Below are positions 14,374 to 15,972 of a DNA stretch of 64,000 bases, piece by piece (position 1 is the stretch's first letter; each line of letters opens with the position of its first letter). The translations under genes and the position numbers were made by a program. The notes beneath the pieces were generated by a model that did no database searches, was not told where the DNA came from, and worked only from the letters and a program-made list of their open reading frames with translations. This DNA comes from Candidatus Shapirobacteria bacterium (GTDB taxonomy: Bacteria; Patescibacteriota; Microgenomatia; UBA12405; BS750m-G30), in assembly GCA_043817235.1 (NCBI GenBank), contig JBDRHA010000007.1, forward strand, positions 9,212 through 73,211. Reading direction: 5' to 3'.

Positions 14374-14617
14374 AAATTTTTGCGTTTCTAGTTCGAGCCG
14401 ATATTTTCAAACAAAAAGGCGGAGCGCGAAGCGCGGAGCCAAGTTGCGGGGAGGTGAAATGTGTTCTGACTTGCTCTAGGGCTCTCACTATCTGGAAAAA
14501 GCAGTTTTACGCGGTGCTTCACTGGCCGCGCCCCCGCCCGCATCCAGCTTCGCAATTTTGGGATTGAAGAAGGTCATTTAAAATGGAATAATACCATTAT
14601 TAGAAACGCAAAAATTT
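14374..14617. repeat. Perfect 17-bp inverted repeats (aaatttttgcgtttcta / tagaaacgcaaaaattt) bracketing a 210-bp segment (14391-14600). That segment is an inverse copy of the dispersed repeat (lacking the aagcttgat hairpin) and contains a TTGAAG-17-AATAAT promoter-like element.
   Basis: Direct reading of the sequence. The arms are at 14374-14390 and 14601-14617. The recombinase ATG is at 14630. Confidence 0.6.
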
Positions 14618-15972
14618 AAAGCATCTTCAATGCTCAAGTATTTAGCTTATTGCAGGAAATCAACAGACGATAAAGAAAAACAGATTTTGTCGATTGAGGC
14701 TCAGGTTGAAGAACTTAAAGAATTTGCCCTTCGGGAAAACCTTCAAGTTGTTGATTGGATAGTAGAATCCAAAAGTGCGAAATTTCCCTCCTTTTGGTTT
14801 GATAATACCCCTCAGGGCAAATTCATGCTTAACATTGCCTTTGGCCAGAGCAAATACTATATTGACAACTTATCAGAAAATGTTAAGCGAGGCATGCGCC
14901 AAAAAATTCGGCGGGGTGAGTGGCCGGGCAAGGCCCCTTACGGATATTTTAATAATCGCCAAACCAGGACTGTTGATATTGATCTAAATACTTGTGGGAC
15001 AGTGAAAAAAGCTTATGAGCTTTTTTCATCAGGGGATTATTCTTTCACCGACATTTCTTTGTTCATGGCGGGAAAGGGCATGACTCGAGGGAATGGGAAG
15101 CCAGTTTCGATCAATCAAGTCACCCGAATGTTTAGGAATCCTTTTTACAAGGGCCTACTTAAATACAATGGCTTACTGCACGAGGGGAAACATGACCGTT
15201 TCATTAGCAATGCTCTTTTTGAAAGGGTTCAAAAAGTGATGAAGCGAAAAACCAAAGTTCGCTTCAAGGGCAACCATTTTGCTTTTGTGGGTTTGGCGAC
15301 TTGCGGGGAATGTGGCGCCTGTATTACGGCTGAAAAACATTGCAAGTACTATTTGCGAACAAAAAGAAAAGCTAGATATGTTTACTATCGTTGTACTAAA
15401 AAATTAAAACCTTGTTCGCAAGGATACTTGCCTGAAGCTGATTTTGCTCACGATCTTCGCCAAGCGGTAAGGAAGTATTCTCTTCATCCTGATTGGAAGT
15501 CATACATTGATAAGTGGATTGAAGAGAAAAAAGAAGAAGAAGGATTTGAGACAAAAGCAAAAGTAGAAAAGCTATCGGGTGATTTGAAAAGAGTGGAGGA
15601 CAAATCTTCCCGTTTGCTTGACCTCTATCTTAATGGTGGTATTGATGAAAAAGGCTACCGGGAAAAACATAACCAGTTGTTCGAGCGCAAGAGAAAAATT
15701 GGGGAACAAATGGCTAATTTAGAGAGCAAGGGTTTTGTTTGGCTCGAACCTCTTGAGCAAGTGGTAAAATGCGCTATTCTAGCGCATAAAATCGCGCAGA
15801 AAAAAGGGGAGAGCGACCAACTTCGTGCGGTCGCTGAAAATATCGGCTCGAACTTCTTTTTAAAAGACAAAAAACTTTCTTTTAATCCCAAAATTGCCTA
15901 TAGATTGCTGTCCGCGGGCGGGGGCGCGGCCAGTGAAGCACCCAGCAAAACTGCTTTTTTCCAGATAGTGAG
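14484..15972. mobile_element. IS-like unit: a large serine recombinase gene flanked by ~58-bp imperfect inverted repeats (IRL 14484-14541, IRR 15911-15972) with a GC-rich tip ggccgcgcccccgcccgc.
   Basis: The revcomp of 15911-15972 aligns to 14484-14541 at ~90% identity. There is a single recombinase ORF inside. Confidence 0.5.

Follow-up and report, generated by a model that had tools for sequence, protein, structure and literature searches.

The recombinase locus studied here is probably a decayed member of a group of small integrative elements of Microgenomates (CPR), which are moved by a large serine recombinase (LSR), insert in the Campbell manner and carry an inverted copy of their attP site. 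It lies in a stretch of 64,000 nucleotides, the window. The copy in the window is a relic and not an active element, because the catalytic domain of its recombinase carries a deletion, its arms are degraded, no tRNA gene is present and its leader is truncated. A widespread kind of gene-carrying element at tRNA gene ends appears to be undescribed in Microgenomates; full-text literature searches found no earlier description of this architecture. The features of the window are the following (a slash between two modules marks a junction in the text below).

917-1092 (approx.), - strand: dispersed repeat copy A, found by blastn and alignment, its type assigned by comparison with the third sites of relatives
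2313-2492 (approx.), - strand: dispersed repeat copy B, organised like A
3078-3275 (approx.), - strand: dispersed repeat copy C, organised like A
14374-14390, + strand: leader motif a, an inverted copy of 14601-14617
14390-14409, + strand: leader motif b, an inverted copy of the VGSNF codons at 15835-15854
14410-14483, + strand: module X, made of a GC hairpin H (14418-14440) and a pseudo-tRNA-like module T
14484-14574, + strand: left arm Y (IRL of the first-pass annotation), from repeat search, blastn and gapped alignment; an outer part O, then a GC palindrome (14522-14547, CTGGCCGCG-CCCCCGCC-CGCATCCAG) and an inner part I
14601-14617, + strand: motif a' (TAGAAACGCAAAAATTT; family-conserved form AAAAACGCAAAAATTT), 13 nt 5' of the start codon
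14630-16018, + strand: LSR gene, 462 aa
15788-15804: motif c', encoding KIAQKK, just 5' of the right arm
15835-15854: motif b', just 5' of the right arm
15874-15972, + strand: right arm Y' (IRR of the first-pass annotation), with a GC palindrome at 15908-15933
15973-16016, - strand: remnant of 44 nt, in the position that a tRNA gene occupies in relatives

The first-pass annotation had proposed that inverted repeats with a striking GC tip bound the gene, and we recovered both. Indeed, a repeat search of the window gave two stretches of the same arms, 14496-14548/15907-15959 (53 nt, 89%) and 14484-14500/15956-15972 (17/17), which merge by blastn into one 59-nt core of 93% identity and which a gapped alignment lengthens to 14484-14574 versus 15874-15972 (82/99 identical). 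The GC-rich GGCCGCGCCCCCGCCCGC occurs exactly twice in the window, once per arm and on opposite strands, with 0 occurrences expected from 100 shuffles. We also observed two perfect inverted repeats absent from that annotation, 14390-14409/15835-15854 (20/20) and 14374-14390/14601-14617 (17/17). The short repeats a and a', b and b', c and c' are left unexplained by the integrative model. No target-site duplication flanks the arms, as the left flank, ending in TCTAGGGCT before CTCAC, and the right flank, GTGAG followed by CCATACGGG, have no common direct repeat.

As had been annotated, the recombinase gene is the sole long ORF between the arms and reads through the right one; its last ~50 codons lie in the right arm, which codes for the family-conserved tail LSAGGGAAS.AP....V, and in the remnant beyond it. 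Pfam recognised Resolvase, Recombinase and Zn_ribbon_recom domains in the protein. The Recombinase domain (PF07508, 45.3 bits) is followed by the zinc ribbon (PF13408), which is the LSR architecture; the zinc ribbon scores 24.7 bits, slightly below the 25.3-bit cut-off, but nearly all listed homologues have it among their precomputed Pfam domains. SPbeta YokA and a conjugative-transposon recombinase are the closest proteins of solved structure (E about 1e-9). IS607-type enzymes are small serine recombinases in which a MerR-like HTH is N-terminal and the catalytic domain C-terminal, and their elements have no terminal inverted repeats. In the window protein the catalytic domain is N-terminal, the LSR domains come after it and long inverted repeats are present. 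Domains, homologues and structure comparison agree with the annotation that the enzyme is an LSR; it is neither of the IS607 type nor of the resolvase type.

The match to the catalytic (resolvase) domain is confined to profile positions 3-45 of 145. About 53 aa have been lost in frame between residues 51 and 52, a deletion which the annotation had missed; the missing stretch corresponds to KxPGR...WHPDRLARNS..GG..IYLLD.G.L.DL. The serine motif YCRKSTD is retained, but the WHPDRLARN motif falls in the deletion; in homologues P0002-P0120 the catalytic domain, which in LSRs carries the nucleophile serine and conserved arginines, is complete. Judged from its sequence, the window gene is a member of the LSR family by descent with an incomplete catalytic domain, and the loss of ~53 residues probably inactivates the enzyme. 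A second recombinase gene of the window (41916-43268) was considered as an intact copy of the element and rejected, being only 35% identical and having neither the repeats nor the leader.

On the left, the window lacks the pseudoknot domain and the promoter that are found 5' of motifs a and b in relatives, because a Type ISP gene begins at 14293. On the right, the 44-nt remnant contains a T-arm-like AGGGTTCCAGACCC, terminates in GGCTCAC and is similar to module T and to a tRNA 3' half; it has no significant match to tRNA-Glu or to the Rfam tRNA family, and no tRNA was detected in it. The nearest tRNA gene is that of tRNA-Glu at 43445-43518, and we rejected the remnant as a displaced 3' half of this gene, since the local alignment score equals the shuffle mean. 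Rfam gave only tRNAs, both at the gathering threshold over the whole window and at E<=5 over 13900-16300 of the window and 5400-7700 of locus L002; no RNA family was matched by the arms, the leader or module T.

The comparison with relatives covered 82 loci, namely 80 GTDB loci from Microgenomates/Patescibacteria MAGs together with L001 and L002. An inverted repeat between the region 5' of the start codon and the gene end was observed in about 65 of them, and the layout as such recurs in roughly 60-65 of the 80; the repeats are family-wide and not unique to this locus. The arms of relatives measure 80-130 bp and are typically 97-100% identical (mean 98.7%), compared with which the window arms, ~90% identical to each other, are degraded. 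Locus L001, which encodes the closest relative of the window protein (P0002), has no left arm whatever. The elements are 3-5 kb in size with several copies per genome, and at least 554 of 598 pattern-matching stretches, among the matches listed in a GTDB scan, encode a relative.

In these relatives the recombinase gene ends in the right arm, which adjoins the 3' end of a tRNA gene. An intact, convergent tRNA gene stands beside the integrase in 39 of 48 loci, where the arm overlaps its 3' end by 3-10 nt; in the window only the tRNA-like remnant is found. The targets have at least 10 identities and include the genes of tRNA-Lys, Glu, Arg, Leu, Val, Tyr, Pro, Gln, Trp and Gly. This position of the right arm indicates integration at a specific site and not transposition. 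Units of different genomes share 85-90% DNA identity from ~415 nt 5' of the ATG to ~10 nt before the tRNA, which makes the left arm internal; a conserved leader of ~400 nt with a pseudo-tRNA module precedes this arm, and the 5' end of the leader is a structured RNA, a covarying pseudoknot.

By a leader-profile search we found, in ~35 loci, a third site 0.7-3.3 kb upstream, which is an inverted partial copy of the hairpins and the pseudo-tRNA. It is near-identical to the X of its own locus, and the identity stops exactly at the X/Y boundary. The compact IS with the arms as its termini, as first annotated, does not hold in view of the conservation ~400 nt beyond the left arm and of this third site, which closes the unit on the left. 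The junctions flank/X', X/Y and Y'/tRNA share a core; X' and X agree as far as the core, Y' and Y from it on. In 15 of 17 loci the three-way core is 2-7 nt long and consists of the last nucleotides of the tRNA; such a common core with pairwise matching arms is expected of Campbell-type integration. Instead of the target duplication that the annotation had suggested looking for, relatives share just this crossover core.

The arms evolve in concert: they are 98.7% identical within a locus, versus 81-86% to the nearest other locus, and the closest arm is the locus's own partner in 33 of 34 loci. The cargo is varied (MFS and EamA transporters, an aldo-keto reductase, CN hydrolase, radical SAM, methyltransferase, reverse transcriptase and others). 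L067 and L073 are 86% identical over most of the unit from the third site to the tRNA (~3.6 kb), and their right flanks differ. Some loci depart from the usual order: in L081 the recombinase segment is flipped and a fold-back (X/O-hairpin-O'/X') is present, L013 has a unit without recombinase at tRNA-Gln and then the X' of the next element, and in L072 a real tRNA-Glu gene takes the place of X.

According to the model that we favour, an intact element, with the recombinase read from left to right, would have the order flank / X' - cargo (1-3 accessory genes) - promoter, pseudoknot leader, motifs a and b - X / Y - a' - recombinase - Y' / tRNA (convergent). Here X is a module of ~115 bp with GC hairpins and a pseudo-tRNA 3' half, and Y an arm of ~100 bp, whose counterpart Y' also serves as the last ~35 codons of the recombinase. 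Integration would proceed by conservative site-specific recombination between the attP site of a circle (Y'/X') and an attB formed by the 3' end of a tRNA gene. The internal X/Y would be a complete inverted second copy of attP, presumably kept near-identical to the ends by gene conversion or recombination. The pairs of repeats would permit flipping of the recombinase segment and of the cargo segment, and rearranged loci such as L081 and L013 may be read as derivatives in which the recombinase was flipped or deleted. Arrays with Y'/X'-like junctions would arise if integration were repeated at the regenerated tRNA end. Positions 14374-16016 of the window would then be an X/Y-recombinase-Y' unit in which the recombinase is dead, the arms are ~90% identical and both the upstream pseudoknot domain and the tRNA are missing.

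Excision and integration were not observed but inferred, since neither an empty attB nor the Y'/X' circle junction of a free element was recovered. Several points count against the model, among them the unexplained short repeats and the missing left arm of L001. LSRs normally require a directionality factor for excision, and the 3-5 kb units have no evident gene for one; nor are LSRs known to integrate in tandem at an attR-like site. The protein P0014 has one and the same context and orientation across 24 assemblies, which belong to a single carrier population and are all occupied; this indicates stability and not activity, and we therefore rejected the idea of recent mobility from identical proteins in differing contexts. 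Two other candidates were also rejected: a left arm that is a simple inverted duplication of the gene's 3' end, as motif b is on the wrong side of this arm, and targeting guided by the leader RNA in analogy to bridge RNA, for which we found no support, the enzyme having its own DNA-binding domains.

The first-pass annotation had related the arms to dispersed repeats elsewhere in the window, and indeed copies A-C are 87-89% identical to 14430-14508 in reversed orientation. On the + strand, copy A has ~35 nt of outer arm (O'), then the pseudo-tRNA module T' and the GC hairpin H', which holds an inner hairpin, followed by motif c (1053-1069, TTTTTCTGCGCGATTTT) and by a terminator-like hairpin. 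Module X at the recombinase is the counterpart of the X' part of these copies, but without the 25-nt inner hairpin. Copy C retains an outer arm part, GAAGCACCCAGCAAGTTCTTACAATTAGTGAG, which ends just before the expected start of the GC palindrome. The shared core is seen in the window only in degraded form, CTCAC, which stands at 14484-14488, in the reverse complement of 15968-15972 and in both copy B and copy C; in copy A it reads CTCGC. By comparison with the third sites of relatives, copy A is a Y'/X' junction, either attP-like or that of a tandem array.

Copies A and B enclose one MFS transporter gene (1080-2243, - strand), and copies B and C one HD-domain gene; in the integrative model all three copies are Y'/X'-type junctions around single-gene cassettes without recombinase. 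In a scan of metagenome contigs for the exact T motif of the window, a single contig of 1.2 kb (L092) was found, which has the same single-gene cassette layout without recombinase and contains neither an empty site nor a circle junction. The segment between copy C and the recombinase holds a class I Trp/Tyr tRNA synthetase gene. Because of this gene, the segment need not all be cargo, and C may not be the left end of this copy. An autonomous/non-autonomous pair of elements, as annotated, is plausible, since A-C and L092 bound single-gene units without recombinase, with the reservation that the window copy is a relic and not active; the IS-like interpretation bounded by inverted repeats is supported only partly.

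A joint reading of these observations goes further, and we regard it as tentative: a CPR-specific platform for the capture and exchange of cassettes by a serine recombinase, integron-like, with tRNA mimicry and leader-gated expression. The recombinase would recognise the universal T-loop/acceptor end of essentially any tRNA gene, and the pseudo-tRNA half-site together with the internal inverted attP would allow insertion, flipping and exchange without a directionality factor. Cassettes would also be left behind as arrays without recombinase, and a previously undescribed pseudoknot leader RNA would gate expression.

Alternatively, the locus could be a programmed invertible switch, in which the recombinase flips its own segment (Y and Y'), and perhaps the cargo (X' and X), mobility being secondary. 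A flip would change what drives the recombinase or the cargo, either the leader promoter or tRNA read-through. In both orientations a (pseudo)tRNA, an arm and motif a' precede the recombinase; the arms are homogenised, many contigs break within them, and the flipped state is present in L081. However, apart from this one rearranged locus, no inversion was seen: a tRNA gene adjoins the left arm, as expected of the inverted orientation, in 0 of 48 loci, and the 24 assemblies with P0014 all have one orientation. The switch leaves the tRNA-end junction, the third site and the shared core unexplained, and we know of no LSR that recombines identical sites. We consequently think a switch unlikely.

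An explanation by nested insertion sequences retains the IS-like view. Y-recombinase-Y' would be a compact IS-like element with ~100-bp terminal inverted repeats, whose target is quasi-palindromic and lies between the end of a pseudo-tRNA (T) and that of a tRNA; X'-cargo-X would be a second, separate repeat-bounded element, and the fold-backs MITE-like derivatives. Inward-facing (pseudo)tRNA 3' ends always flank Y-recombinase-Y', fold-back remnants (O-hairpin-O') are found between T and a tRNA or T', and the right junction is a dyad, TTCGATTTC and GGATTCGAA separated by 19 nt and centred on the tRNA end, which is the shape expected of a serine-integrase target. Yet we observed no Y without X on its left, save in variants such as L072, no X directly beside a tRNA and no target duplication. 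The promoter-like region of the recombinase and the conserved leader would belong to the other element; leader and recombinase are collinear between genomes at an equal 85-90% identity, and two independent insertions at one nucleotide would be needed in every locus. This makes the nested arrangement improbable. Finally, it is very unlikely that a duplex of the left and right arms in the recombinase mRNA (5' UTR with 3' end) controls translation or stability, even though the arms lie inside the predicted transcript and the leader's 5' end is demonstrably structured (pseudoknot): we rejected it since the arm mismatches have no G-U bias (30 wobble-compatible on the + strand, 52 of the opposite polarity, 87 transversions) and since near-100% identity stopping at a recombination-type core indicates maintenance at the DNA level.

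The integrative model finds its closest counterpart in LSR elements and prophages (phiC31, Bxb1, A118, SPbeta SprA/YokA, TnpX of Tn4451), which have the same resolvase, recombinase and zinc-ribbon architecture and likewise a short crossover core, an att site at or overlapping the recombinase gene and a quasi-palindromic junction. As far as is known, characterised serine integrases mostly target sites in protein-coding genes. The Microgenomates family is distant from them in sequence (E about 1e-9 to structures), targets the 3' ends of many different tRNA genes, and has arms of 100-125 bp with an internal inverted full copy of attP and no evident directionality factor. Its elements are tiny (3-5 kb) and carry no phage or conjugation genes. 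We rejected a phage origin, as the family is essentially missing from the IMG/VR viral contigs (best match 35% identical) and the T motif of the window was not found in viral contigs.

With the serine invertases (Hin/Gin/Cin/Pin) the locus has in common a recombinase gene between inverted sites, as in the Salmonella H segment. Those enzymes are small, have a C-terminal HTH and act at 26-bp sites together with a Fis-dependent enhancer, whereas here we find an LSR and ~100-bp arms, and no population-level mixture of orientations was seen (48 loci, 24 assemblies). Integrons offer a functional analogy only, a recombinase platform beside an array of one-gene cassettes with structured hairpin repeat sites (A-C, L092); they use a tyrosine recombinase, attI/attC sites and single-strand substrates, in contrast to the serine recombinase, the ~170-bp pseudo-tRNA-containing junction repeats and the platform at tRNA genes described here. 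The analogy to FLP/FRT of the yeast 2-micron plasmid is only structural: the predicted circle would have two unique segments split by long inverted repeats, with a recombinase site inside each repeat. The 2-micron enzyme is a tyrosine recombinase on a replicating plasmid, where inversion serves copy-number amplification; the Microgenomates elements have no replication genes. Tycheposons and tRNA islands also integrate at tRNA genes, with modular accessory cargo, arrays and degraded remnants (bioRxiv 10.1101/2020.12.28.424599). In the part of that work by Hackl et al. considered here, tycheposons mostly have tyrosine recombinases, a minority using LSRs, lie between direct repeats of partial tRNAs and in many cases contain replication genes; unlike in the Microgenomates elements, no inverted internal att copy is described in it (bioRxiv 10.1101/2020.12.28.424599).

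Should the integrative model hold, a mobile element of 3-5 kb is abundant in Microgenomates and uses a serine integrase to move 1-3 accessory genes to tRNA ends per event. Little is known of gene transfer in this phylum group, and the element would offer it a major yet simple path for gene flux. The natural targets of these serine integrases would be conserved tRNA 3' ends, in many different tRNA genes, and each element would contain an internal reference attP that can be read from the sequence, which would be useful for genome-engineering discovery. A new mechanistic question would also arise, namely what an integrative element gains from an inverted, intact attP and from homogenised repeats of 100-125 bp. 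The leader with its covarying pseudoknot is a candidate for a new class of regulatory RNA. In genome annotation, the overlap between gene and att site should be seen as the cause both of the conserved C-terminal tail (A.GGAAS) and of the read-through into tRNA sequence.

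The recombinase gene of the window had been described in the first-pass annotation as a compact IS-like element bounded by inverted repeats and paired with MITE-like dispersed repeats (copies A, about 917-1092, B, about 2313-2492, and C, about 3078-3275, all on the minus strand). We indeed recovered the inverted arms by an inverted-repeat search of the window, over 53 nt at 89% (14496-14548/15907-15959) and over 17 of 17 nt (14484-14500/15956-15972). Both segments were joined by blastn into 59 nt at 93%, and a gapped alignment of the full arms (14484-14574 versus 15874-15972) gave 82 identical positions out of 99. 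The GC tip GGCCGCGCCCCCGCCCGC occurs twice in 64 kb (0 expected), once in each arm, and forms the centre of a small palindrome in both. When the flanking sequence was read directly, no target duplication was detected around the arms. The features are the following; the last two had been missed by the first-pass annotation.

14630-16018, large serine recombinase ORF with Resolvase, Recombinase and zinc-ribbon domains
14522-14547, left-arm GC palindrome, CTGGCCGCG-CCCCCGCC-CGCATCCAG
15908-15933, right-arm GC palindrome
14390-14409/15835-15854, perfect inverted pair b/b', 20/20
14374-14390/14601-14617, perfect inverted pair a/a', 17/17

This enzyme belongs to the large serine recombinases, as a divergent member: it has the domain set of that group and is not IS607-like, and the closest solved structures are those of SPbeta YokA/SprA and of a conjugative-transposon recombinase (E about 1e-9). 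The family is essentially absent from IMG/VR viral contigs. The window protein has an identical counterpart in the annotation of a Candidatus Shapirobacteria MAG (238,659-bp contig). In the window protein, only positions 3-45 of the 145 of the catalytic-domain profile are matched, and alignment with ten homologues (48-58% identity) revealed an in-frame loss of about 53 residues that takes in the nearly invariant WHPDRLARN..GG..IYLLD block. From this loss we infer that it is probably catalytically dead. The same alignment showed that the C-terminal tail A.GGAAS..P....V...G.EP is kept across homologues and that in some of them it runs on as translated reverse-complemented tRNA, so that the right arm lies in a conserved gene end overlapping a DNA-level constraint.

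In 80 loci encoding relatives, all from Microgenomates/Patescibacteria MAGs, the 900 nt upstream of the gene were then compared with its end. The repeats are not unique to the window, since about 65 of the 80 loci have an inverted pair, typically of 80-130 bp and 97-100% identity; the loci lacking one are mostly contigs cut close to the gene. Within one locus the arms are 98.7% identical on average, versus 81-86% for the nearest arm from another locus, and the partner arm is the closest relative in 33 of 34 loci. The arms are thus homogenised by concerted evolution. Their mismatches have no G-U bias (30 versus 52; 87 transversions), which argues that identity is maintained at the DNA level and not via RNA pairing. 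In the GC palindromes of the arms and of the X modules (GC hairpins plus a pseudo-tRNA module, T), for example L002:5880-5925 in a relative's locus and 14522-14547, 15908-15933 and 14418-14440 in the window, the stems vary between loci yet stay complementary, i.e. they covary. The 8-nt loops are conserved and G-rich (GGTGGGGG, GAGGCGGG) or the complement thereof. Such variation typifies hairpins recognised through the loop, not palindromes bound by a protein. Many contigs start or stop within an arm (L006, L010, L016, L025, L026, L049, L052, L068, L020, L046 and others), so these repeats seem to break the assemblies of Microgenomates MAGs systematically.

Some 50-150 nt separate the left arm from the start codon, and the sequence beyond this arm shows that it is not terminal: on its left is a conserved non-coding leader, composed in order of the following parts.

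Part 1, promoter-like hexamer pair
Part 2, pseudoknot domain
Part 3, motif a (AAAGTTCTTTAAAATTTTTGCGTTTTT)
Part 4, small covarying hairpin
Part 5, motif b (TGTTCGAGCCGAC), reverse complement of the VGSNF codons
Part 6, GC hairpin with loop GGTGGGGG, then a second hairpin
Part 7, module T, a pseudo-tRNA 3' half (TTGAAATnCGTTCGAATTTnTTCAAAAACGT)

Module T retains the T-loop box, and its distance to the CCA position is 4 nt longer than in a real tRNA. A conserved H-type pseudoknot directly downstream of the promoter-like site was found at L002:5584-5680 and, at the matching position, in 26 further loci; a covarying hairpin comes after it. Its helices P1 (97.9% paired, 6 of 9 pairs covarying) and P3 (98.8% paired, 10 of 12) are well conserved, and a U-G pair kept in 24 of the 27 sequences points to a plus-strand RNA. 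Neither leader nor pseudoknot matched Rfam; the latter could represent a regulatory leader, or a riboswitch-like motif, of a new kind. The short perfect pairs a/a', b/b' and c/c' (window 14374-14409, 14601-14617 and 15788-15854) are also present in most related loci, where they connect the leader and left-end site with the promoter-proximal region of the recombinase gene and its KIARAK and VGSNF codons. A simple inverted duplication as their origin does not fit the motif order.

On the other side, in 39 of 48 loci, the right arm shares its outermost 3-10 nt with the 3' end of a convergent tRNA gene, the tRNAs being of at least 10 identities. Units of different genomes are 85-90% identical in DNA sequence from the leader start up to some 10 nt short of the tRNA. 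A leader profile search further detected, in about 35 loci, a partial inverted copy (X', hairpins plus T) 0.7-3.3 kb further left; it is near-identical to the X of the same locus, and this identity breaks off precisely where X meets the arm. With a conserved leader beyond the left arm and a third site further left, the arms cannot be kept as the termini of a compact IS. A common core of 2-7 nt, consisting of the last nucleotides of the tRNA ([TCAC]CA, [CAGCC]A or [CGACCA], for example), occurs at all three junctions in 15 of 17 loci compared; left of it X' equals X, and right of it the right arm Y' equals the left arm Y. A three-way core with pairwise-matching sides is the signature of conservative site-specific recombination.

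In such a scheme, the left site would be attL, the tRNA junction attR, and the internal X/Y junction an intact inverted copy of attP (equal to Y'/X'). A circle would integrate at the tRNA end by attP x attB recombination, the T-loop box possibly being recognised as a half-site motif. The half-site spacing of serine integrases reportedly differs between attB and attP, as in work on LI integrase and attP; the right-junction dyad TTCGATTTC..19 nt..GGATTCGAA and the +4 spacing on the T side would recall this difference. Segments could flip via the repeat pairs, and arrays could grow through repeated integration. No directionality factor for excision is evident in these units.

The stretch from X' to the leader is occupied by one to three unrelated accessory genes, such as those for MFS and EamA transporters, an aldo-keto reductase, a CN hydrolase, a radical SAM protein, methyltransferases, an ABC1 kinase or a reverse transcriptase. 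Some locus pairs share leader and recombinase and differ in cargo; L067 and L073 are 86% identical over about 3.6 kb, most of the unit from the first site to the tRNA, and have different right flanks. Rearranged loci were also observed. In L081 (3802-5900) the recombinase segment is flipped relative to the leader, with a fold-back X/O-hairpin-O'/X' (O, outer arm part) that would be accounted for by a deletion between directly repeated copies of the palindrome stems. L013 (1560-2320) carries a recombinase-less unit at tRNA-Gln, followed directly by the X' of a second, complete element in tandem. In L072 (3700-5600) two real tRNA-Glu genes in inverted orientation flank the recombinase, and there is an additional tRNA fragment that breaks off at its T-loop. 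Since none of 48 loci has a tRNA adjoining the left arm, and one recombinase present in 24 assemblies always has identical context and orientation, frequent switching is disfavoured.

Tycheposons are likewise tRNA-associated cargo elements with arrays; they have mostly tyrosine recombinases (bioRxiv 10.1101/2020.12.28.424599), whereas the family described here has a large serine recombinase. Full-text searches of the literature gave no earlier description of a serine-integrase element with this double inverted-repeat architecture.

The window copy (14374-16016) consists, in order, of a, b, X, Y, a', the recombinase gene, Y' and a 44-nt tRNA-like or T-like remnant, and each part is degraded. 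Promoter and pseudoknot are absent because a Type ISP restriction gene starts at 14293; X is devoid of the 25-nt inner hairpin found in A-C, the arms are 83-93% identical versus about 99% in relatives, and no tRNA was found at the right end. The copy is a fossil. It does belong to a mobile element related to the dispersed repeats, as first proposed, but it is defunct and is no inverted-repeat-bounded IS; its worth lies in pointing to an element family that is widespread and uncharacterised.

Copies A, B and C combine some 35 nt from the outer arm with T', the hairpins and motif c, which is typical of left-end sites in relatives; they look like Y'/X' junctions, such as tandem integration at a regenerated tRNA end would leave. 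A single MFS transporter gene lies between A and B and a single HD-domain gene between B and C, both without a recombinase, and a metagenome contig with the same T motif has the same cassette layout. The computed TTG start of the HD-domain ORF (2383-3030) falls within copy B; the true start codon probably lies further into the ORF, the Pfam match not beginning until residue 66. C may or may not be the left end of the unit with the recombinase: the 11 kb between them include a class I Trp/Tyr tRNA synthetase gene and defence genes. This synthetase gene (4304-5371), amid accessory genes, may be housekeeping, the array then being interrupted by core genome, or an auxiliary copy.

Defence genes are dense around the element (8141-14293 and 16057-41852).

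8141-14293, Type ISP restriction-modification enzyme, OLD-family nuclease and DUF2130
20557-21615, SMODS/CD-NTase-like nucleotidyltransferase
22891-24282, ParB-methylase fusion
37191-40328, Type I restriction R subunit
Right side, DUF3800
Right side, Cas4/DUF2779 protein

A second large serine recombinase (41916-43268, 450 aa) is intact, with a full catalytic domain, and is 35% identical to P0002, one of the homologues; it has neither inverted repeats nor leader. A convergent tRNA-Glu(ctc) gene (43445-43518) lies 177 nt beyond the end of its gene and is followed by uvrC and uvrA, and the region from 16 to 43.4 kb has the look of a separate island inserted at that tRNA.
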